A stretch of DNA of 64,000 nt from a phage: the NCBI GenBank assembly GCA_027262695.1, contig GCA_027262695.1_4722.1; one strand, given 5' to 3'. This document shows, one piece after another, positions 28,928 to 62,874 of this stretch. The translations under genes were made by a program, and so were the position numbers. The notes beneath the pieces were generated by a model. It saw only the letters and a list, made by a program, of their open reading frames with translations. It was not told the DNA's origin and did no database searches. The number at the start of each line of letters is the position of its first letter. Position 1 is the first letter of the stretch.

Positions 28928-29614
28928 TTAACACATGATTTCACCATGTTTCTTTTCAACATACGTATAAACATCATCCAAATAAGCGATGAGTTTATCA
29001 CGATTCGCACAAAGCGATTTGATCGTTGCAATCTCTTTCGTATAAAGCTGCTGGCCCAGGGCTGGATAAGTAATCCAAGCATAACCATCAGGTGCGAATT
29101 TAGAGATAAGGTAATCGGCGGTTTCCTGTAATGCGAACTCCTTGCTCATCTGGCCGTAGCGGTGTTCGATAGCACGAATACCAAAACGTTCACTATCAAG
29201 ACGACCCATATCCGCCAAACGAAGAACCTGAGAAGCCACAGAACTACGTGGACCGGAATACGAGGCGCGATGTTCAGCAATGAGTACGCGTATCTCCTCG
29301 ATATCTTCCGGTGTGAAAATATGTTGCTCATTACGAAGTAAGATAATCGACGCGCGAATACCGCCAATAAGGTGGTGGTATGTTCTGTTCTCATGACAAG
29401 CGATATCATGCATGAACGCTGCGGTTAACAGACGACGGCGTTCAACCGGTCGAATGATACCAACCACATCAGCAAGTTCATTTGCCAGTTCGACAACAGC
29501 AAGGACATGTTCTTCTTGATGGGCAAGATCGTTCTTTTTAATGTTATCAATAACTTCAGTGCGTGTTTCCTGAGATAAGAAATTTAAGCAGTCTAACGAA
29601 AATAAAGATTTCAT
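28928..29614 (-). CDS. HD-domain phosphohydrolase
   Basis: H...HD pattern (EEHVLAVVELANEL; AAFMHDIACH); TATATTAC-type promoter box 49 nt upstream. Confidence 0.55.
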   Translation of the reverse strand: MKSLFSLDCLNFLSQETRTEVIDNIKKNDLAHQEEHVLAVVELANELADVVGIIRPVERRRLLTAAFMHDIACHENRTYHHLIGGIRASIILLRNEQHIFTPEDIEEIRVLIAEHRASYSGPRSSVASQVLRLADMGRLDSERFGIRAIEHRYGQMSKEFALQETADYLISKFAPDGYAWITYPALGQQLYTKEIATIKSLCANRDKLIAYLDDVYTYVEKKHGEIMC

Positions 29615-29660
29615 CGTACGTACCTCTTTGACTGTATTAATAAATCGTGTTTACTCACGT

Positions 29661-29679
29661 AAGTAATATAGCCGTGAAA
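29661..29679 (-). promoter_or_regulatory. candidate early promoter box (minus strand TTTCACGGCTATATTACTT)
   Basis: One of four near-identical boxes, each 23-71 nt upstream of a minus-strand start codon. Confidence 0.5.
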
Positions 29680-34797: not shown

Positions 34798-37059
34798 TTA
34801 CAATTCGAAATCTTCATCGATAACGCGTTGGGTTAGCACCTTGTCGCTGAAGAACTCCACCTTACGTTGATGGTATTTCCGATGTGCTTCAATCGACGTA
34901 CACACCAGATACCAGAACGTGGGTGTCATACCCTCGAACTTCCCTTTCAGCTGACGTAGTCGACCTAACACCTGAATGTTACCAGTTCTCGACCCCATCG
35001 CTAACGTCATGAACGTCATCACCAAGTCAGGAAGATCGATTCCTGTACCAGCCGATTTCACCGTTGTCACACTGATATCATTATCCAGTAACACCATGAA
35101 ATCTTCTTCAGCGGTATAAGGACCTATCTCCAACTCAGGGATACGTTCACTTAAGTAATGCGATAACGACTTGCACATATCAACGGTTGCACAATACACC
35201 AACATCTTCATGCCTTCCTGATATTGGTTCATGAAACCTTTGATAATAACCGTATAGATAAAGTTGAAATAGGCGAGTTTGAGTTGCTTATTCTTCATGA
35301 TAGACTGTTCGAATACCGTGTGAGAATAAGAACCTCCAAAGCCTTTGTATCGGACTTTATCCGTACTGCGTAGTCGATACGTCACCGCATTTACCGCGAT
35401 GTATTTCTTGTATTCACATTTCGCATAACGTGCTTCTTTCGGATACATCAAATACAGCATCCGCTCGATGAACGGATCGTCAGACACCGCCGTTGCCGAC
35501 AGATAAATGATTTCCGGAATATTCGCGTAACACTTCACTTTGAACAAGAAATGCAGAGCTTCGTGACATTCATCGTGGATTAACAATCCAATGCCTGTTT
35601 TCTCCCAGAACTCGACTGGATGGAAAACATAAGGTGCGACACAGTTGTTCTTTTCATAATCGGTTATATAACGCTGAAACATGTTCAGTGAGAATAACGC
35701 AATTTTGAAATCCAACTCACCTTGTTCTACCAGCGTCTGAAATTCCAACATGCTGTAACGAGGAATGTCGGGATGCGGTGGGTCAGACTGGGCTGTACCA
35801 CGTATCTCGATAACATCACCTGGTTCCATACCGAAGAAACTTAGCAGTGAGCTACGCCATCCAGGCATGTACCTCGGTGACAGAATGATGCCCGTCCGTA
35901 CACCACGTCGGAAGGTGATCTCCTGCGACATTGCGGTGTTGTGCGTGACGATATGGTCTTTAATAACATAAAGGCTTTCGTCGTTGTCCACCGTGATGCA
36001 ACGTGCCTTCGCTTTCACCGTCGGCACGATGCCGCCAATCGCTAAACCAGGAAGCGTGTTAACGGGAAGATCATCTGGAATCTCAATGCCGTCAGGAATA
36101 AGCTTAAGCAAATCGGAATGGTAAATTAATGTCTCCATCGTGTAACTATTGATGGGGCATTTATACGCGATTCCCCCTAACCGATAAGCCAACTCCCAGA
36201 CCTCGGTCATTATCTGCGAATCGGTGGTTCTGACCGCAAGGTGAGCCCACCCTTCTTCAACACGCAGTACGCAACGATCTTTGATGAGTTCTCTGAAACG
36301 ATCAAGACCCACGAGTTCTTTCGGTTCGTAAAGTCGGATTCTTACCGGACGAGATCGTGACGATCTGTCATTAAGACGTTCCATGATTTCACTCGTGCTG
36401 AGCACCTTGTCAGGATCCGTGCATTGCCAGAGATGATCACCACACGCTTCAACCATTCGTCCATCTTCAAAGAAGACAGCGTAAAGCTGAATATCGTCAT
36501 GATCAAAGATAGCAGTTACGTTCGTCGGTAAACCATCCGCGCCGATGACCTCATCACCCACCTGGAGCTCACCAATCGGCTTCCAACCGCTTGGAACCTT
36601 AACGGGTGTATGGAGAGCCAATGCTTTCCCAGACCCCGTGCCTGCGGTGTTTAGGCTCATTCTGAAAGGGGTATCCTTACCCCCATCCATGTACTCCAAC
36701 CATTCTTGCTGATCTTCACGCCACGGAAACTTCCAGTTCTTCACAAACTCCACTTCCTTACCTGGAACCGGATCGTGGTAAACGATTTCCAACCACTCCT
36801 TTCGAATTCCTCGAGAAAAGATAAAATCCAAAAACGACTTCAGCTGTTCACGAAGTAAGTAGACCTCGCTATAATCGCTTCTTGCTGCGGCGTAGGTGTT
36901 GATGGTATCGGTGACCATTCTCCGTGTACGAGGGTCGCGTCGTTTCCGTAGATGCAAACAACGGTCTCGAAGGTAATGGCCAATCAAATGGGCAAATCGA
37001 AGTCCGTATCCGCTCAGCTTCATGCCATGCGAGAAGACGTCGATACGAGCTAACTTCAT
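34798..37059 (-). CDS. SF2 DExH helicase interrupted by an intein in motif I
   Basis: Motif I TAGTGSGK|...|T, motif II LIHDECHEA, motif VI TVKSAGTGIDLPDL; 229-aa insert between K145 and T375. Confidence 0.75.
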   Translation of the reverse strand: MKLARIDVFSHGMKLSGYGLRFAHLIGHYLRDRCLHLRKRRDPRTRRMVTDTINTYAAARSDYSEVYLLREQLKSFLDFIFSRGIRKEWLEIVYHDPVPGKEVEFVKNWKFPWREDQQEWLEYMDGGKDTPFRMSLNTAGTGSGKALALHTPVKVPSGWKPIGELQVGDEVIGADGLPTNVTAIFDHDDIQLYAVFFEDGRMVEACGDHLWQCTDPDKVLSTSEIMERLNDRSSRSRPVRIRLYEPKELVGLDRFRELIKDRCVLRVEEGWAHLAVRTTDSQIMTEVWELAYRLGGIAYKCPINSYTMETLIYHSDLLKLIPDGIEIPDDLPVNTLPGLAIGGIVPTVKAKARCITVDNDESLYVIKDHIVTHNTAMSQEITFRRGVRTGIILSPRYMPGWRSSLLSFFGMEPGDVIEIRGTAQSDPPHPDIPRYSMLEFQTLVEQGELDFKIALFSLNMFQRYITDYEKNNCVAPYVFHPVEFWEKTGIGLLIHDECHEALHFLFKVKCYANIPEIIYLSATAVSDDPFIERMLYLMYPKEARYAKCEYKKYIAVNAVTYRLRSTDKVRYKGFGGSYSHTVFEQSIMKNKQLKLAYFNFIYTVIIKGFMNQYQEGMKMLVYCATVDMCKSLSHYLSERIPELEIGPYTAEEDFMVLLDNDISVTTVKSAGTGIDLPDLVMTFMTLAMGSRTGNIQVLGRLRQLKGKFEGMTPTFWYLVCTSIEAHRKYHQRKVEFFSDKVLTQRVIDEDFEL
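35938..36624 (-). mobile_element. mini-intein (class-3-like: Ala1, W-C-T motif)
   Basis: Starts ALALHTPVKV...VGDEVIGADG, block B GRMVEACGDHLW (W at B:12), block F RCITVDN, ends IVTHN followed by Thr; removal restores GSGKT. Confidence 0.7.
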
Positions 37060-46629: not shown

Positions 46630-48216
46630 TTATTTTTTTCCTCTTAAATTTACTACATGTTCATTTAATCGAACAACTAATTGCACAAGCTGCTGACGGA
46701 TATCTGCTGGGCAAAGCATCAATCCTTTACGATCAGCGGGGACTTTCTCAAGGATTTCAGGGCCTGCTGCTGAAACATCCCAATCCCATTCACAAAACGC
46801 ATCGGCTACCATGTTAATACCGACAACCGGTAAAGTTGTACGTTCATCTTCATACATGGCATGCGGATACAATTTATTGACGGTAATAATCTCCTGTGGT
46901 TTTAATTGGTGGATAATCTGATAAACATCATCACGTTTAACCTGGATGCCTACGGTTAATGCGGCCAGTTGAGGGAAACCCCAATGGTCTAACAAGCATG
47001 CCGCAATCGCTAACGCTTTTGCCTGATGCACGGCTTCAATCGGTGCCAGACTTCTCGCCGGAAGATGGCTGTCCAACAACCATTGCGCCAGTGCTCGGCA
47101 TCCGCGATTGATCGGTTTTAACTCAACGGTATCATCATGCTTCGCGTAAGTGTATCCATCGTAACGTTTTGCGATACGCGCATACATGTCTTCAACCTTA
47201 CCGTACGGTGCGGTTTCATCAACGTCGTGTAACACCCGTTCCATCTGGGTAAGATAAGCGATATCAAGAATGAGTACACGTGGTGAACGTTTATCTTTCA
47301 CCATCAGCGCATCAATCACACCTTGGCTATCTTCATCTTGCGCATTCCCTCGCGGAGTTTTCTCACGTATGGGTCCGCTGAAACGACGTTCCGTACAGAG
47401 GTTATTCACATAACTGAAAATCAGCGTCACCAGATGCGTACAACTGACCAACACCCCATCTTTAACGACGGGCTGCACGGCTTGGTCCAAATCACGTACC
47501 GCAAGGCGTCTGACGATGGCTTGCGAACGCAACCAACCCGGCACTTTTTCTGTTGACATGTAATCCACGGTCATCGACAACGTGATCTTTTTATCGCCTG
47601 TCTGTGCACGGATATAGTCTTCCAGTCGGTCATAAGCTGCGATATCATGAATGCGTGTTTTATACATCAGCGACATCGCCACTTCTTCTTTACGTACTGT
47701 CCCGTACGTTTTCCCCGCATCAATCAGGAACTCAGCCCAGATAGGCACCATCAAACGAACGTAAATCGCTAACGCGGTTAACTCAACATAATCGTTTCGT
47801 AAATAGGTTTTCTCTGGGATATCATCCTCGCCTAATGTCGTTTTCATGTCTGGCGGTAATTTTACCCAACCTGGGGTATTACACAACGCCAGAATCTCTT
47901 CGTATACAACGGGTTTGTAGATTTCGCCAACGGCGCGACTCAGCTCCTCCATTTGTTGTTGCGGTGCAATGTAATTATCCATCGCTTCACGTGCTTTAAC
48001 GAACCCTTCAAAGATATCATCGGTTCGACGTGGGTTCTTTTGCTCTATCCAGGCAAGATACTTGTTAATCTCTCGCATCTGATTGCTGGCCATATCCCCA
48101 TCGATCTTGATATAACCTTGGCCTGAAAATTCCACGGTCCGTCCATCACGATGTTTGATAAGATAATGGTCTAGCTTTTCTTTGCCTTGCGTCGTAATGA
48201 CGGGCACAATGTGCAT
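46630..48216 (-). CDS. hypothetical protein
   Basis: 528-aa ORF; TATATTAC-type box 56 nt upstream. Confidence 0.55.
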   Translation of the reverse strand: MHIVPVITTQGKEKLDHYLIKHRDGRTVEFSGQGYIKIDGDMASNQMREINKYLAWIEQKNPRRTDDIFEGFVKAREAMDNYIAPQQQMEELSRAVGEIYKPVVYEEILALCNTPGWVKLPPDMKTTLGEDDIPEKTYLRNDYVELTALAIYVRLMVPIWAEFLIDAGKTYGTVRKEEVAMSLMYKTRIHDIAAYDRLEDYIRAQTGDKKITLSMTVDYMSTEKVPGWLRSQAIVRRLAVRDLDQAVQPVVKDGVLVSCTHLVTLIFSYVNNLCTERRFSGPIREKTPRGNAQDEDSQGVIDALMVKDKRSPRVLILDIAYLTQMERVLHDVDETAPYGKVEDMYARIAKRYDGYTYAKHDDTVELKPINRGCRALAQWLLDSHLPARSLAPIEAVHQAKALAIAACLLDHWGFPQLAALTVGIQVKRDDVYQIIHQLKPQEIITVNKLYPHAMYEDERTTLPVVGINMVADAFCEWDWDVSAAGPEILEKVPADRKGLMLCPADIRQQLVQLVVRLNEHVVNLRGKK

Positions 48217-48269
48217 AACAACCTCTTTTCGCGGTTCCCTGTTAAACGTTTTCTATAACGCCATCAAGG

Positions 48270-48288
48270 AGGTAATATAAGCGTGAAT
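48270..48288 (-). promoter_or_regulatory. candidate early promoter box (minus strand ATTCACGCTTATATTACCT)
   Basis: Same box upstream of 46630..48216. Confidence 0.45.
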
Positions 48289-52981: not shown

Positions 52982-53524
52982 TTAGACCAGCGCCGCGATA
53001 ACGTCGTTGACGTTGCGGCCGCGTAATTCAGCCGCTAAGCGAATCACTTCATCCAGGGAACGCGTTGTACGAATCTTGGCCACTTTCCAATTTTCAGGAT
53101 ACTGTTCGAAGTTCAGCAGCCAGGTCATGACTTTCGCTTGTTCCACACCGTTCAGCTTGATGGTCGTACGCGGATTGGCTTTAAACCACTTCTTGCTTAA
53201 CTGTGCCATACGGCGAACAGGGTAAGCATAAGCGCGAGTCCAGTCTTTGGACAGATTGTCGAGTAATTCACGATAGCTGCTGTCGTAGTCTTTGTTAATA
53301 CGACGTAACAGCCAGTTGGCGGTCATCTGGTAGAGTTTATCGTCTTCACGTAAACGCATACCTGCCATCGCTAAATAAACAATAAGGCCCGCACCCATAA
53401 TCAGAGACAGGATAAACAGAATTTGAGTTTCTTGAGCTAATGTCATTTTACTATCCTCGGATTTATTAGGATTTGATTTCCAATATAAGGACAACGCCTT
53501 ATACAGTCGATTGATGTTGTACAT
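52982..53524 (-). CDS. membrane-anchored protein
   Basis: Hydrophobic segment ILFILSLIMGAGLIVYLAMAG near N-terminus; TATATTAC-type box 23 nt upstream. Confidence 0.5.
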   Translation of the reverse strand: MYNINRLYKALSLYWKSNPNKSEDSKMTLAQETQILFILSLIMGAGLIVYLAMAGMRLREDDKLYQMTANWLLRRINKDYDSSYRELLDNLSKDWTRAYAYPVRRMAQLSKKWFKANPRTTIKLNGVEQAKVMTWLLNFEQYPENWKVAKIRTTRSLDEVIRLAAELRGRNVNDVIAALV

Positions 53525-53545
53525 CGCATCTGTGATGTATCACAG

Positions 53546-53564
53546 AAGTAATATAGCCGTGAAA
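53546..53564 (-). promoter_or_regulatory. candidate early promoter box (minus strand TTTCACGGCTATATTACTT)
   Basis: Identical over 17 nt to the 29661 copy; upstream of 52982..53524. Confidence 0.5.
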
Positions 53565-55118: not shown

Positions 55119-55356
55119 TTAGCATTGGTTATTGATTGCTTCTATTTCATCGATATACGGTTCTACGTCATCGCCCTCCACGAATTCGTTGAACCAACAG
55201 TCAATCGTTGAGATAACCGGTGACTGATGTTCACATTTCTTAGATACCTTAAACGGAACGTTGTTATCCATCATACCGAGTTCGGGTCGGAATCGCCCGA
55301 AATGTTTCGCAGTCCAAATGTCTGGGACGATATGGTTGTTCATAGCGTCTCCGTCG
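55119..55356 (-). CDS. RNA polymerase beta-prime-like subunit N-terminal part, exon 3
   Basis: Begins C GAC GGA GAC GCT ATG (..DGDAMNNHIVP ~ DGDQMAVHVPL); ELGMMDNNVP ~ ALMMSTNNILSP. Confidence 0.7.
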
Positions 55357-55734
55357 CTGTTTGTCGACTATATCTTCATCTTCATTGCGAAGAGACTCTC
55401 GTTTGGGTTTGTGTTTAACAAAGCCTACTCTACTCAACATCGCGTCTTTCGATAGTCTGTGAGCACACATCTTAACGAATATTCGTGGGTTCCTACAGAC
55501 AGGTGAATATTCTTGTTGAGATGCTTCGCTGCGGATTATTCCCGTCCTACCTCTTTTACCATACCCAGTTCATTACGCTGGCCCTCATCGATGTCACCAT
55601 GATGAGTTGGTGTGTAGTCCGATTACAGAAACTTCCCGTCAATTAGAGAGTTTTAACTATGCTCCTGTTACCAGGAACCAGATCCCGACGGTATCAATAA
55701 ATCAACGTAAGTTATTGATTTAATTGAAAAAACT
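55357..55734 (-). mobile_element. group I intron 2 in beta-prime gene (no ORF)
   Basis: Minus-strand P AATTGACGGGAAG (55643-55631), Q AATCCGCAGCGAAG (55536-55523), R CACAGACTATCG (55460-55449), S AAGATATAGTC (55376-55366). Confidence 0.7.
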
Positions 55735-55747
55735 GAAATCTGCATTA
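55735..55747 (-). CDS. beta-prime micro-exon 2 (13 nt, encodes part of Y-N-A-D-F)
   Basis: Minus-strand ATAATGCAGATTT between the two introns; joined to flanking exons gives ...KGYNADFDGDAM... and a 1494-nt in-frame CDS. Confidence 0.6.
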
Positions 55748-56114
55748 TCTTAATCTTCGATATGGTTCGCTAAGCCATATCCGCACATACGTGCAGCTTA
55801 CGTCTTTCACGTAAGAAGAGACTATATCTTTCACCCTCAGCTTTACCTGTTAGGGGCTCCCATTTCGGCGGTCGTTTGACCGGTGGTTTCCCACGCCGCT
55901 TGGCCCTAACGCCCGTGAGCGATAGTCGTTGAGCACATCTCCGTTCTGGAGACTTCGCTGCGGATTCCTCAATCCTTACTGCTTTTACCGTACCTGAATG
56001 ATTAGTTCAGCCCCACGCTCTGTTCCCAGGCATGGTTGGTGAGCAAGGCTCTAAGTAGGTTCCCGCTATTAGAGAGTTCCTCGTGACAGCATTACTGTGT
56101 CACTGGGCCTAATG
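55748..56114 (-). mobile_element. group I intron 1 in beta-prime gene (no ORF)
   Basis: Minus-strand P AATAGCGGGAAC (56069-56058), Q AATCCGCAGCGAAG (55965-55952), R CAACGACTATCG (55930-55919), S AAGATATAGTC (55829-55819); exon ends GGGT, IGS GCCC. Confidence 0.7.
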
Positions 56115-57357
56115 ACCCTTTCAAGATCATCACGCTTAACCCGATGGTGTTATCCTGCGGGTCGCGTTTAACCTTGGTGATTTCAAGACATTGGTTACTG
56201 CTACGGTCAAGTGATGGATTTCGAACAAAGCCACACACAATCCCATCGAACGGTGTATCAGCAATAAGCTCGTCATGCAGCTCGCTCATCATCGGATGAT
56301 AATTGCGGACATGCTCTGCAACGAACGCACGGGCTGCTCTTGGTGAATAACCACGATGGAATAACTTGGATTGGATATGTTCTTTATTGGTTAGTGTAAA
56401 TGGTGCGTACGGAAAATGCAGATGATAATAACGATGGTTTGCTGTTATCGAACTGATGACCGTACGTGTGGTGAATGGATGTAATGTACCTAATATGTTC
56501 TTACGTGTGATCCCTTTCTTCTTACCAATGAACTCATCGAAAATCGCCGAGTGATACTGCAACAGCTTCAATTGCACTTTCGCCATCCAGTTTTCTTTCT
56601 TTCTGGCGCTTAGTGGCGTGGTTGGATGATAGATGCTATTCAATGTTCCGATGGCGTCTATCGCACCTTCCATTTTGCTGTCAGCGTAACGTCCTGTTGG
56701 CGTGTTCTCGATCACGAACATCATGGCTGCAGGAAAGCTGATGTACTGACTGAAGAATTTATCCCGATGAATACGGATGAATTCGCGTAGCGTATCAACC
56801 TTCTCCATGTTCTTCGGTCCACGTAGTGTGGGTCCTTTATACAAGATCTCCATGATACGATCGAAGTTCTGTATAAAGCTATTTATACCGCGTCGTATTC
56901 CGAATACATCGAATTGCTGTTCCAGATAGTTCTTAAGTTCGATCGGTCGTTTTACGTTCGGACGGTAACTGGCATCAATGAGCCACGTCATCGTTTCAAA
57001 GCTTTTGATATTCAACTCGCTTGCCAGCACGAGATGGACCAACGGGTTAATGAACGCATCGATACCTTCCGGTACGCGCGCCCAGACCGTTGAACGAATC
57101 TCTTGTTCTGCTGGATAAGTGACAACCGTTTTACAGTTCGGGCACACCGTCCCTAATAACTCACCGCGATTATAGAAACCACAACCGCATTGCGGGGTGA
57201 TATCCAAGGTATCGCTCGAGTAAACACGGGTGATGAAACTGTTTAATTTCTTCTTCTCTTCCACGACCTTCGTATCATAATCGTTCAACAATATCGGCGT
57301 AAAAGGAAGTTCTGCGAGCTGTCTATCGAAACTGACGATATCGAGCATGATGGCCAT
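56115..57357 (-). CDS. RNA polymerase beta-prime-like subunit N-terminal part, exon 1
   Basis: Zinc site TPQCGCGFYNRGELLGTVCPNCKTVV ~ beta-prime YECLCGKY...CEKCGVEV; RKNILG...RTVISS ~ RFRQNLLGKRVDYSGRSVI; VRNPSLDRS ~ LNRAPTLHR. Confidence 0.75.
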
Positions 57358-57399
57358 GGGGTATCTCCTGCAAATGAAAAAGAACGTTAGGACGTATAA

Positions 57400-57423
57400 G
57401 GGAGGGAGGTTGCCCTCCCTCCC
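57400..57423 (-). terminator. perfect 10-bp GC hairpin between the 632-aa gene and beta-prime
   Basis: GGGAGGGAGG TTGC CCTCCCTCCC. Confidence 0.55.
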
Positions 57424-57449
57424 GTCAGTTTACATCGAACGTTCTTCCA

Positions 57450-59348
57450 TTAGAACAGGTTGAATGCCCCGCCCATGCCGTTACCGCCCACATTCGGACG
57501 ATCGTTACGTGCGTAGATGTTGCCGCTGATGGTACCCAGACCGCGAGCACGTGCTGCCATGTTACCACGAACAGCGGTGCCTGCCAGATGCTGGATGTTC
57601 TCAGGACGGATGGTGAAGCCTGCTTCAGCAGCCGCTTCAATCAGTGCCTGCAACGCCAGCGGATCGAAATCATAACGCATCGCCCAGCCGGTTTGTTCCC
57701 AGCTACCAGACAGAACGCGGTCGATGATTTCGTGACGAGCAACCACACGCTGAGACATCGACATATCGGTACGGTCGAAGCTGTCTTCCCAAGCTTCTAC
57801 GGTATCCGGGTTGGTGATGTTCATCATGTACAGATCGTCCATATCACGAATATCGTGACGGTTACCGTCCTGGTGGTTGTAGTGACCCAGCGGGATACGG
57901 TTACCGGTCGCGTAGACCAGCGGTGAGCCGTACGGATATTTCTTGCTGAAGCAACCCAGGGTAACATCATCGAACGCACGGAAGAGGGCTTTGTAGCCTT
58001 CGGAGTATTCCTGTACGTCCCCTTCAACATTACCCGAGAAGATCTTCTCAGCCGCCGGGATCATACGCAGCAGCCAGCTGTACTCGCCTTCTTCTGGTAC
58101 ATCGATAGAGATCAGCAGAGACGGATACAGAACCTGTTGCAGGAACTTGTAAATCTGCTCGTTGGTTTGCGTAGACAGATCCAGCGGTGCAGTCACTTCA
58201 GGATCCAGCACCATCGCCAGAGCACCTGGGTTATGCGGACCAATACCACGAGCCGCGTTGCTGATTAAAGACTGTGCCCATGCCATGCCGCTGTTCAGCG
58301 TAGCGATGGTACCAATCAGACCCAGCACGAAGCTGTTCGGCGTGAACGCATCCAGTTCCAGCGGATACATGCTGGTCATTACGTAGCGCGGCTGGTACTG
58401 AACAGTTGGCGGTACCGGATAACCGTTAACCAGAACAGGACCTTGCTGGAAGGTCGGGTTCTGCGGGCTGTAGGTCAGATCGATATAACCGGTGGATGCA
58501 ACCAGACGCTGCTGGCTATCGTAATCGCCCATCGCTTGACGGATGCGGTTAGAGATAGTTACAGTAATGTCGGAGCGTACCGGGTTACCCGCGATATCAC
58601 TGTCCTGCATGCCGCTGGTGTTATACTGAACGCTGCTGATCGGCTGGTCGCTTGCCATCATACCCAGGTTGAACTGAGGCAGGCCCAGTCTGTCAGCAAA
58701 ACGCATTTCGGTTGCCGTCTGGATCGCGTTATCTGCTGCAGACAGCAGGGTGGTTGCCAGATGCGCAGATTCAGCAGTGATTTCATTGGTCACAACAGCC
58801 AGACCAGCGATACGTACCGTACCGTTGGCTTTACCACCGATAGCCGCATACATCGCTGCCATGACTTCGTTGATGAACGTGCCGTTCAGGTTATCCACCC
58901 AAGTACATGGTACCAGGATGTTACCGTGAGGACCACGTTCTTCACGACGTGGCAGCGGAGCCAGGCCAGCAACCAGCGGAAGGACGTAACCGAAGAAGTG
59001 GTTATGATCGCCCACTTTTACACCGCTCATCACAACCAGGGTCGGATACGGTACGCTGTACTGGTTCGGGTCAACCGCAACAAAGATGAAGTCGTCTTTG
59101 AACTGGGTATCTTCCAGATATTTCTCCATCAGACGACGGAGATTCAGTACCTGCTCGGAGCCGGTATTACGGCTGATACGACGGCTCAGTGTACGGTTGA
59201 TCGTACGCATCGTATGAGTTACTTTAGGACGGTCAGCAAAATCTGCAGCGGTTTCGACCGCTTCGTTAGCGCGCTGCGCCGCGCGGGTTTCAGCTACGCG
59301 GATGTCTACGTTATCGTTACCGTTATTGTTACGTACGTCTAAGCCCAT
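57450..59348 (-). CDS. large early protein, candidate nuclear-shell (chimallin-like) protein
   Basis: 632 aa, TATATTAC-type box 71 nt upstream, directly upstream of beta-prime gene (as recalled for phiKZ gp54/gp55); no diagnostic motif identified. Confidence 0.4.
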   Translation of the reverse strand: MGLDVRNNNGNDNVDIRVAETRAAQRANEAVETAADFADRPKVTHTMRTINRTLSRRISRNTGSEQVLNLRRLMEKYLEDTQFKDDFIFVAVDPNQYSVPYPTLVVMSGVKVGDHNHFFGYVLPLVAGLAPLPRREERGPHGNILVPCTWVDNLNGTFINEVMAAMYAAIGGKANGTVRIAGLAVVTNEITAESAHLATTLLSAADNAIQTATEMRFADRLGLPQFNLGMMASDQPISSVQYNTSGMQDSDIAGNPVRSDITVTISNRIRQAMGDYDSQQRLVASTGYIDLTYSPQNPTFQQGPVLVNGYPVPPTVQYQPRYVMTSMYPLELDAFTPNSFVLGLIGTIATLNSGMAWAQSLISNAARGIGPHNPGALAMVLDPEVTAPLDLSTQTNEQIYKFLQQVLYPSLLISIDVPEEGEYSWLLRMIPAAEKIFSGNVEGDVQEYSEGYKALFRAFDDVTLGCFSKKYPYGSPLVYATGNRIPLGHYNHQDGNRHDIRDMDDLYMMNITNPDTVEAWEDSFDRTDMSMSQRVVARHEIIDRVLSGSWEQTGWAMRYDFDPLALQALIEAAAEAGFTIRPENIQHLAGTAVRGNMAARARGLGTISGNIYARNDRPNVGGNGMGGAFNLF

Positions 59349-59416
59349 TTGGGAATCCTCTTTTTCTTAACTTTTAAATGACGTCATTGAATCAGCTTTT
59401 TCTCGCTCATTCACCT

Positions 59417-59435
59417 AGGTAATATAACCCTGAAA
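59417..59435 (-). promoter_or_regulatory. candidate early promoter box (minus strand TTTCAGGGTTATATTACCT)
   Basis: Same box upstream of 57450..59348. Confidence 0.5.
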
Positions 59436-59586: not shown

Positions 59587-60681
59587 ATGTTTCGTGTTTT
59601 AAATAACCTCCCGCGAACATCATCGGGTGTGCAACCCATCCCTCAGAAAGACTACCTAATACGCGAAGTGCAAAGAAACCTACAGACAATCCAGAACCAC
59701 TACCAAGGGTTTACCTTCGCGGTTCAGAGCGATCACATCCTTGCATTGCTGCTCGCACAGCTCCCTATGAGATACGACATCTCAGTACAAACTTACTACG
59801 ACATGATCGCTGACCTTACACCAGAATTGGGGAATCGCGTTAAACTAACAACAGCGCGATACGCGGGTAAGTTATTTAACGGTGCGTTCTATCCGGGATT
59901 GCATGAAGCGATCATTGCAACCAGTGAAAGCCGTCTTATATCGCGTGACGTTCTCGATAACTGGCGTAACTGGTCTCCGGTCAGAATCGTGACACACCCC
60001 TACGCGAATCTTCGCTATATCCCTCTACATCGAAAACCGGTTGAAGAAGGACGGGGTTTTGCGGTCATCATGATCGATGTACCTTTATTAGCGTTGCAGT
60101 ATCGCATGTGGTCATTAGTCATGGGTCACAACGTCGATGGTAAATGGGTGGTTAAAGAACCTGTTACAAGTTTCATTGCCAGTTTTCCTTTGGTCAATGC
60201 ATTATACACACACAACGACGTGGCTATCCGCAATCGTTGCTTATGGGTACCTCCGGCTAAGAATCCGCTCAAGTCACCGATTTACGTCAACGATCTGGAT
60301 AACGTTTTCAGTCAAGTGGTGCTGACCGTCCAACATCAGCTATTACGAAGAAAACGTAGTTACACCGATATGTTGAAACAGATACCGAGTTTATACGAGG
60401 ATCAATTTCAAGCAACACGCATGGGTTACACCATCGATCTTCGACAAACACGGTGGGCAAGGGATCTCGGATGTTTGTCTTTATGGCAACAGCTTGTTAC
60501 CTTGCAAAACGTTTCAGAAAGCGTCGGCTTCAGTAGTCAAACCGACAACGACTTATATCGTGCAGCCGATCGAAGTCTAAAAGAAGGGAATTGGGAATCG
60601 TCTCCTTTACCCGGTGATCTACGACGCGAGGTTATCGCACAGGTTGCTGATCTTTTAAAAATACTTCCCGCTGGTGCATAA
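59587..60681 (+). CDS. hypothetical protein
   Basis: 364-aa plus-strand ORF ending at bidirectional hairpin. Confidence 0.5.
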   Translation: MFRVLNNLPRTSSGVQPIPQKDYLIREVQRNLQTIQNHYQGFTFAVQSDHILALLLAQLPMRYDISVQTYYDMIADLTPELGNRVKLTTARYAGKLFNGAFYPGLHEAIIATSESRLISRDVLDNWRNWSPVRIVTHPYANLRYIPLHRKPVEEGRGFAVIMIDVPLLALQYRMWSLVMGHNVDGKWVVKEPVTSFIASFPLVNALYTHNDVAIRNRCLWVPPAKNPLKSPIYVNDLDNVFSQVVLTVQHQLLRRKRSYTDMLKQIPSLYEDQFQATRMGYTIDLRQTRWARDLGCLSLWQQLVTLQNVSESVGFSSQTDNDLYRAADRSLKEGNWESSPLPGDLRREVIAQVADLLKILPAGA

Positions 60682-60720: not shown

Positions 60721-62874
60721 TTACTCTGCGGTTTCTTTTTTCGGTTGGTAGCTTGCAGCGATATCTTGGGCTAACAGTGTGTTGTTCTTATTCGAAATGA
60801 AAATACCGTAACTTTCCATTAATGCGTAATACGAGCGAACGAGTGTAGAAATCAATCGACGAATATCCATACCTTGGATGAAAATATCGGGAAGCCCAGA
60901 GGCTTCGATCACCGGTAATGGTATCGTTAAATTGCTTATCGTTTTCTTATCGTTACGTACAATCCAATCACGGAAACGTTGTTGTAACCCTTTATCCTCC
61001 CAGGAATCAATCCAATCATTAAGAAGCGTTTTGTTCTTCGTTGCCAATGGTACACGAACCCCAACATAAGGCGGTTCAGGGCAATGGCCGTACGATTGCG
61101 CAAACACCTCTTCCCACATGTCGTACGACTGCTTGGTAACCGCAACATGTGGTTTTACTTTAACGCGTGTTAAGAAATCAGGATCGCCGCGTTTCATCGA
61201 TTCCACGATTTCGTTTTCTAACGCGATGATATCATCAAGTACTAATCTGATACTGATCTTCTCGTTACGTAACAGTTTATCCATGATACCGCACATCATG
61301 CGCTCAACACGTTGTACGATCATTTTTGGTGCTGATGCGTCACGCATAACGGGACCTTTCAATTCCAGTTTCGGCGGATTGATTGGAACCCCTTCACGCA
61401 TGGTCATGTAACCGTAATAGTTTTTACCCATTGAAGTCAACGACAGAATCAAGAACATATACTCGTTCTTCATTTCCATCACGTACATATGCTCTTTCGC
61501 GACGCCGATATTACCCGAACACATTGCCATCAGATGAACCGTAATCTGCGTAACCAGGTAGATAAGCGTATTCGCTAAGCGCGTTGAAATCGGATTGATC
61601 TCCATGTTGCCAAACCGCCACTGAACCCACTCCTGACAGGTAAATACCGTTGAGTCGGTATCGGACAACACACCCACTTCACGGATGGCTGACGGAAACG
61701 CATAAACACCCGCGGGTTGGTTCTCGGTGCGCCAGAACGCCATAATCAGGTCAGCGTAACTCTGGATACGTTGTAACATTAATTTTGTCGTGGCAGCGGT
61801 AAGACGATAACCCAGTTCGTTGCCTTTTTCTAACGCAACGTAAATCGCTTCACCATTTAAGAACTCGGTACACTGTGCTGTAATCCAGGCAACCGTGTTA
61901 TTATCCATGGAGGCGATAATGGCTTTCGCCTCTTCCATCGTTTCAACAGGTTCGGTGGCCAATTCACATAACGAATCAAGGAAACCACAAACAAACTCAG
62001 GATTCAGTTCACGCAACGAATACAAGTTGTTACTATACATGTAACAGGCGCGTTCCAACGGCGTTAAACCGTTAATCAACTCCTGAATAACCAGTTCTTT
62101 TTCCGGGTCGAAAATATAGCGATGCAGGCATTTTGATACATTAGCCCAAACCTCTTCCGGTGTAGGGTAATGTAGCTGGTATTTTACCATCACCTGCTCA
62201 ATGGCTTTACGATCGCTGTTACGGACAATGCTTACGATATTTTCAATCGCGATATCACAATCGTAATAATGAAAATTACCCGCCAGGAACCGCTCGTTAT
62301 TCGCATTCGCCGAACCGGAAGCGCATCGGCATGTCGTGGTTAAACTCGGATGTGCGATCGGGTTATAAAACGGATTGAATTTAGATGCCTGTGTTCCCGA
62401 CAAACTGTTGTTGTCTAACTTGGTGTTAGTCTGTCGTTTATCATGCAGTTCCGCTTCGTCTTTACGTCCATGTGCTTGTGCAATAGACATTTGTTTCTTT
62501 TGTTTCTTACGCAACTTACCGTTTTCAACCGCGAAGTCGCTTAACACACTGGAACGTGTTTCACGTGGATAACAGTTCGCCCATACCGGGGTAATGATTA
62601 AATTATTTTCTTTGATATCGTTGATATACTGACTGAACTTAATAACTTCTTTTTCTCGGTTTCCTTCGGTACGTTGTGTTAAAACAAGACAGTCAGGATC
62701 AACCATCCCGTGTGCACCACCTGGCTTGATAGTATCAAGTACGAACCGTAATGCTTCTTGTTGAGAAATACCACGCATGCGCATTAAGAACAGGGTATAA
62801 TCCTGCACCGCTTCTTTGGTCATATCCAACGTACGACCGTATCCGTTTTCATCGTAAAAGAACGGATTTTCCAT
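60721..62874 (-). CDS. RNA polymerase beta-like subunit, N-terminal part
   Basis: SYGHCPEPPYVGVRVPL resembles beta HYGRVCPIETPEGPNIGLI; size and context fit split-beta arrangement. Confidence 0.45.
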   Translation of the reverse strand: MENPFFYDENGYGRTLDMTKEAVQDYTLFLMRMRGISQQEALRFVLDTIKPGGAHGMVDPDCLVLTQRTEGNREKEVIKFSQYINDIKENNLIITPVWANCYPRETRSSVLSDFAVENGKLRKKQKKQMSIAQAHGRKDEAELHDKRQTNTKLDNNSLSGTQASKFNPFYNPIAHPSLTTTCRCASGSANANNERFLAGNFHYYDCDIAIENIVSIVRNSDRKAIEQVMVKYQLHYPTPEEVWANVSKCLHRYIFDPEKELVIQELINGLTPLERACYMYSNNLYSLRELNPEFVCGFLDSLCELATEPVETMEEAKAIIASMDNNTVAWITAQCTEFLNGEAIYVALEKGNELGYRLTAATTKLMLQRIQSYADLIMAFWRTENQPAGVYAFPSAIREVGVLSDTDSTVFTCQEWVQWRFGNMEINPISTRLANTLIYLVTQITVHLMAMCSGNIGVAKEHMYVMEMKNEYMFLILSLTSMGKNYYGYMTMREGVPINPPKLELKGPVMRDASAPKMIVQRVERMMCGIMDKLLRNEKISIRLVLDDIIALENEIVESMKRGDPDFLTRVKVKPHVAVTKQSYDMWEEVFAQSYGHCPEPPYVGVRVPLATKNKTLLNDWIDSWEDKGLQQRFRDWIVRNDKKTISNLTIPLPVIEASGLPDIFIQGMDIRRLISTLVRSYYALMESYGIFISNKNNTLLAQDIAASYQPKKETAE

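Follow-up and report, generated by a model that had tools for sequence, protein, structure and literature searches.

A chimallin gene of a Goslar-like phage, with a candidate early promoter upstream and predicted group I introns in the adjacent RNA polymerase gene

The minus-strand gene at 57450..59348 of the window (the whole stretch of phage DNA analysed here, 64,000 nt) very probably encodes ChmA (chimallin), the nuclear-shell protein of a Goslar-like Escherichia coli chimallivirus with a genome of ∼248 kb; from the comparisons below we put the probability of this reading at roughly 97%. The gene is the ortholog of a well-characterised protein and as such is already known. A first-pass annotation had proposed a 632-aa ORF at this position as a candidate phage-nucleus shell protein on the basis of its context. 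Both the ORF and the proposed identity were borne out, the former by an ATG start, a Shine–Dalgarno sequence and purifying selection, and the latter by matches to Pfam PF25677, to PHROG 4795 and, over the full length, to solved chimallins.

Identity and relatives of the 632-residue protein

The coding features are as follows:
57450..59348, minus strand: chmA, assigned as chimallin, the major phage-nucleus shell protein, 632 aa (Pfam, PHROG and PDB matches; Goslar alignment; codon comparison)
59356..59360, minus strand: Shine–Dalgarno sequence GAGGA, 7 nt 5' of the chmA ATG (read from the sequence)

The ORF listing gives 632 codons on the minus strand, beginning with ATG. In a codon comparison with Goslar, chmA had a dN/dS of 0.09 (dN 0.034, dS 0.375), and this strong purifying selection on the frame argues that the ORF does not exist by chance. 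ORFs on the opposite strand inside chmA (e.g. 58443..59342, plus strand) were rejected, as selection acts on the minus-strand frame.

We then looked for similarity to the chimallin family and found it at several levels. The Pfam profile PF25677 (Chimallin_Phikzvirus) matched the protein with 90.5 bits, above its cutoff of 27, aligning residues 22–596 with profile positions 12–591 of 627, and PHROG 4795 ('nuclear shell protein') matched with an E-value of 1.4e-53. Among solved structures, Goslar chimallin (7sqt_A) covered residues 1–632 end to end with 1345 bits, and nearly full-length matches were obtained to PhiPA3 PhuN (8fne, 1.7e-20), to the 201phi2-1 protein (7sqq, 9.4e-11) and to the solved chimallin 8igg. 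Goslar ChmA (gp189 in Laughlin et al. 2022; HOV27_gp246, NC_048170; PDB 7SQT/7SQU/7SQV) is a full-length ortholog, identical at 591 of the 632 positions (94%) and colinear with our protein to both termini. Its structures were determined at 2.3–2.6 Å for the 631-aa protein, and its shell lattice was shown in situ (Laughlin et al., PMC9365700). The chimallins of 201phi2-1 (gp105), PhiPA3 (gp53, PhuN) and Phikzvirus (7SQQ, 8FNE, PF25677) belong to the same family and length class as the window's ChmA and are colinear with it over ∼535 residues, but at an identity of only ∼20–25%. An AlphaFold2 model made from the single sequence was uninformative (mean pLDDT 33.8); the two-domain chimallin fold is assigned to ChmA because of its 94% identity to the solved structure 7SQT.

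The N-terminal segment (NTS) and the two C-terminal segments (CTS1 and CTS2), carried on flexible linkers, are needed for self-assembly of the chimallin lattice (PMC9365700), and in Goslar-type chimallins CTS2 is reported to be shorter and to make a distinct set of contacts (PMC9365700). All three segments on their linkers were found in the window's ChmA, with boundaries that are approximate because they were transferred from 201phi2-1 numbering. The 41 differences from Goslar ChmA (40 substitutions, plus one residue inserted in the N-tail) are unevenly distributed, with eight in the first 40 residues and three in the 13-residue CTS1–CTS2 linker, compared with none in residues 41–62, one in residues 586–611 and none in the last eight residues (625–632); the remaining substitutions are scattered in the two domains. 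Judged by position, the unchanged residues 41–62 and the last eight should be the sites of the tetramer-forming NTS and of the last CTS, respectively. Deletion of the N-tail in the 201phi2-1 protein did not significantly lower its incorporation into the shell (PMC9365700).

Could the protein be a chimallin-like paralog, or an accessory protein associated with the shell, instead of the major shell protein? Its identity to chimallins outside the Goslar group is only ∼22–25%, as such a protein might show. However, its position marks it as the ortholog of the experimentally characterised Goslar ChmA, with which it shares 94% identity from end to end as well as the flanking genes, and a tblastn search of ChmA against the phage collection returned a single place per record, Goslar included. 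We consider a paralog very improbable and retain the assignment as the major shell protein.

An identical protein is deposited in NCBI under the name 'hypothetical protein [Escherichia coli O157]', from an isolate assembly, a label that could suggest a decaying remnant in a bacterial chromosome. Against this, the ORF is intact with the low dN/dS given above, all its neighbours are phage genes, chmA lies on contigs of 244–248 kb that correspond in size to a whole Goslar-like genome, and no match was found in 5,426 complete E. coli genomes. A chromosomal remnant is therefore even less credible than a paralog, and chmA is best read as a phage gene. One of these contigs, L007 (the L numbers are our handles for related loci), comes from an E. 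coli O157 isolate assembly (GCA_027262755.1, ABJYRE010000004.1, 248,053 nt) and is 100% identical to the window over 7.9 kb.

In the phage record collection, Goslar (vB_EcoM_Goslar) was the only record with a close DNA match to the locus. The two DNAs are 91% identical at the chmA locus and 83–89% identical in the flanks, and they have in common the genes flanking chmA, the motif upstream of it and the hairpin downstream. As this identity is below the usual 95% species line, we place the window's phage in a sister lineage of Goslar; it seems to form a species-level lineage of its own, one with no record in the collection searched. The 90% cluster of ChmA has 249 members, drawn from metagenomes and from isolate assemblies of E. 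coli and Salmonella, and all sampled members with a source name are called 'hypothetical protein'. Among 17 sampled variants of this cluster the window's ChmA is the outlier, with 93–94% identity to the rest. The immediate gain is a correction of annotation: the exact protein and ∼249 close relatives bearing the label 'hypothetical protein' are orthologs of a solved, essential phage-nucleus protein, and recognition of ChmA marks the ∼240-kb contigs as nucleus-forming jumbo phages that travel with clinical or food isolates. Further leads that can be tested come from the surroundings of the gene: a candidate consensus for early promoters of Goslar-like phages, and a set of naturally occurring intron layouts at an RNA polymerase active site.

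A candidate early promoter upstream of chmA

The first-pass annotation had also called the gene early and pointed to a box upstream of it. The box is there: the 8-mer TATATTAC lies at 59419–59426 (minus strand), and a 70-nt gap separates it from the chmA ATG. Taken by itself the 8-mer is not significantly enriched: it occurs four times in the window where 2.16 occurrences are expected, and four were reached in 18 of 100 shuffled sequences. All four copies, however, form the core of a 24-nt element, TTCASGNNTATATTAC-N6-GA, which is present four times in the window against none expected. When the 24-nt pattern TTCACGGNTATATTACNTNNGTGA was allowed up to three mismatches, it gave four matches in the window and none in 100 shuffles, and looser patterns picked the same four sites in the window and no others. 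Every copy is intergenic, on the minus strand, and 24–71 nt 5' of a minus-strand start codon:
59411..59434, minus strand: promoter-like element TTCAGGGTTATATTACCTAGGTGA upstream of chmA (24-nt motif, invariance, AR9 layout)
29655–29678, minus strand: copy before the ORF starting at 29614 (PHROG family of unknown function)
48264–48287, minus strand: copy before the ORF starting at 48216 (PHROG family of unknown function)
53540–53563, minus strand: copy before the ORF starting at 53524 (matched no family)

The three copies away from chmA sit 24–56 nt before their ORFs, which are candidates for co-regulated early genes. Goslar also carries copies at the positions matching 29655 and 53540, and in each of the nine related loci, that of Goslar among them, the chmA copy is unchanged. 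The intergenic region upstream of chmA is 94% identical to that of Goslar while ∼30% of the synonymous sites in chmA have changed, indicating constraint on the upstream region. A promoter scan found no σ70-like site upstream of chmA, and its overall counts were at chance.

The early consensus of the AR9 virion RNA polymerase (vRNAP) is AAATATATATTAT-(6N)-G, with the G as the mapped start +1 (PMC5312081). This TATATTAY-N6-G layout is matched by the window sites, all four of which read TATATTAC-(6N)-GA. The window's candidate promoter differs in that its upstream half is specific (TTCASGNN, with AATMC before it), whereas AR9 and phiKZ have a plain AT-rich tract there. We assume that the element is also akin to the early promoters of phiKZ. 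A literature search returned no description of the 24-nt element.

In Goslar infection, knockdown of ChmA stalls the process at the early-infection (EPI) vesicle. The gene belongs to the early programme of the vRNAP (PMC10541120; PMC12908238), as one of the first that the injected enzyme transcribes (PMC10541120; PMC12908238; PMC13282480). Because the motif is conserved and AR9-like in layout, a σ70 site was not found and early transcription of chmA has been reported, we infer that TATATTAC-N6-G is the early vRNAP promoter of chmA, with a start near the G at 59412 and a 5' UTR of 64 nt. Early timing of chmA in the window's phage thus has indirect support, from the promoter-like motif and from the literature on the Goslar ortholog.

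Alternatively, the element could be, for example, a middle-class promoter or a regulator site, with transcription of chmA starting elsewhere or depending on a different polymerase. On its own the 8-mer is no commoner than chance predicts, there are just four copies of the element in 64 kb, and the other three genes behind these copies have no known function or timing, all of which would fit such a role. On the other side, the 24-nt motif is far more frequent than chance would allow, each copy stands on the coding strand shortly before a start codon, the motif does not vary across relatives, its layout fits the AR9 vRNAP consensus (PMC5312081), and chmA is reported among the earliest vRNAP transcripts (PMC10541120; PMC12908238). 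We therefore regard this alternative as unlikely, though as a much more serious contender than a paralog or a remnant is for the gene itself, and favour the early-promoter reading.

A shell around the phage DNA has been shown for Goslar ChmA (PMC9365700, PMC10541120), and we infer that the window's variant would assemble one as well. By direct analogy with this 94%-identical protein, chmA would be transcribed by the injected virion RNA polymerase at a very early stage, with the TATATTAC-N6-G element 64 nt before the start codon as the most likely promoter, and host ribosomes would translate the mRNA. ChmA monomers would then form tetramers through the N-terminal segment, and the tetramers would be interlinked by the two C-terminal segments into a square lattice. 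The resulting shell would arise beside the early-infection vesicle, take over the genome, and enclose it during replication while keeping out host nucleases and ribosomes.

The spacer hairpin and the predicted introns of the beta-prime gene

As the first-pass annotation had noted, chmA lies directly upstream of a beta-prime gene. The next ORF on the same strand, 56092..57357 (minus), is a homolog of phiKZ gp55, the N-terminal beta-prime subunit of the non-virion RNA polymerase (nvRNAP), and matches 7ogp_A with an E-value of 9.4e-60. The 92-nt spacer between the two genes (57358–57449) folds with −41.7 kcal/mol (z = −5.9), and none of 200 shuffled sequences was as stable. The hairpin within it is conserved among four Goslar-like genomes (97% identity):
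57400..57423, minus strand: GC hairpin core GGGAGGGAGG-GCAA-CCTCCCTCCC in the chmA/beta-prime spacer (folding, conservation)

A scan with a terminator consensus did not call this hairpin, and it is not followed by a T-run. It is a candidate terminator or RNA-stability element, the terminator role being a suggestion because of the missing T-run.

The unspliced beta-prime ORF stops before the catalytic motif, and NADFDGD appears only after two introns have been removed in silico. The predicted parts of the gene, in the direction of transcription, are:
56115..57357, minus strand: exon 1 (phiKZ gp55 homolog), ending ...MILKG plus the first base of a Tyr codon (homology, in-silico splicing)
55749..56114, minus strand: group I intron A, 366 nt, missing from Goslar (RF00028 26.9 bits, E 2e-4; frame restoration)
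55736..55748, minus strand: 13-nt mini-exon ATAATGCAGATTT, encoding (Y)NADF (in-silico splicing)
55357..55735, minus strand: group I intron B, 379 nt (RF00028 49.2 bits, E 4e-11)
55119..55356, minus strand: last exon, starting (F)DGDAMNNHIVPD (score gain, alignment with RAY)

Removal of 56114..55749 and 55735..55357 leaves the three exons in one frame, encoding a protein of 497 aa (...KGYNADFDGDAMNNH). Against 7ogp_A this product scored 255.7 bits, up from 206 before removal, with coverage extended to residue 495 of 508. The spliced protein aligns without gaps across both junctions to the product of the intron-less 495-aa gene of Erwinia phage RAY, with NADFDGD aligned. Introns A and B are thus separated by 13 nt, and both interrupt the stretch that encodes the catalytic YNADFDGD. 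Both have a U at the 5' exon end and a G at the intron 3' end, and the frame is restored on their removal, as predicted for splicing. At gathering thresholds Rfam gave no match in the window, introns A and B both falling below the RF00028 gathering score of 50, and the group I assignment is therefore based on the E-values, on 92% identity to a Goslar intron, on presence/absence polymorphism and on frame restoration. That annotated Goslar intron is the counterpart of intron B but carries an HNH ORF that B lacks, whereas intron A is an insertion relative to Goslar.

We compared the intron layout in eight genomes whose ChmA is identical to, or at least 93% identical to, that of the window. The stretches were 55357–56135 in the window, 9204–11070 in L002, 9204–10370 in L003 and 9204–9981 in L004, and the same stretch was taken in L006–L009. 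Six layouts were found, with four insertion sites within ∼27 nt:
Window and L007: A+B
L006: A+C
L003 and L008: A+B+C
Goslar: B with an HNH gene, plus C
L009: B with a different HNH insert
L004: C'+C

Across these layouts the beta-prime exons have at least 99% protein identity, and some of the eight genomes encode the identical ChmA. One of the 5' splice sites in L004 has a C in place of the final U. Introns with homing endonucleases are known from the RNAP genes of chimalliviruses (PMC11620839); a literature search found no description of this beta-prime intron cluster.

These observations can be combined into a joint reading of the locus, to which we give about an even chance. According to it, TTCASGNNTATATTAC-N6-GA would be the vRNAP early promoter of Goslar-like phages, the hairpin would uncouple the highly expressed shell mRNA from beta-prime, and the catalytic codons of beta-prime would be an arena of fast turnover with at least four group I sites. 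If this is true, intron turnover could bear on intron-mediated competition between co-infecting chimalliviruses.

Gene neighbourhood

The order given in the first-pass annotation, with the shell protein (gp54 in phiKZ) followed by the RNAP subunit (gp55), was recovered in Phikzvirus PA7 and in Erwinia phage RAY, and the chimallin genes of Phikzvirus adjoin the nvRNAP beta-prime subunit as chmA does in the window. The conserved block is larger than this pair: a divergent PolB, an opposite-strand ORF, ChmA and nvRNAP beta-prime are common to the window, Goslar, PA7 and RAY. Its remaining members in the window are:
59587..60681, plus strand: divergently transcribed neighbour, 364 aa, PHROG 3938 (function unknown; family match, position in RAY)
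60721..62874, minus strand: divergent family B DNA polymerase, 717 aa (PF20286 at 673.5 bits; same position in Goslar, PA7 and RAY)

The 364-aa neighbour is 29% identical to RAY gp221, which occupies the same position. The window also encodes the nvRNAP together with other beta-like RNAP subunits, an NAD-dependent ligase and helicases, and these genes are syntenic with Goslar. A search for tRNAs in the 64-kb window gave none. Adjacent ORFs of equal length (528/528 aa and 262/262 aa) were considered as pairs of paralogs and rejected on comparison.

One of the helicases (34798..37059, minus strand) contains an insert of 229 aa in its Walker A motif, between GTGSGK and T (window positions 35938–36624). 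The insert is missing from the 524-aa Goslar ortholog, and its flanks are 98–99% identical. It starts with ALALHTPV and ends with IVTHN before the T, so that its ends are intein-like (A...HN followed by T), and Pfam Hint profiles matched it weakly (E 0.007–0.03). A Trp follows the block B His and a Cys is present in the block F region, features by which the insert presumably resembles a class 3 intein.
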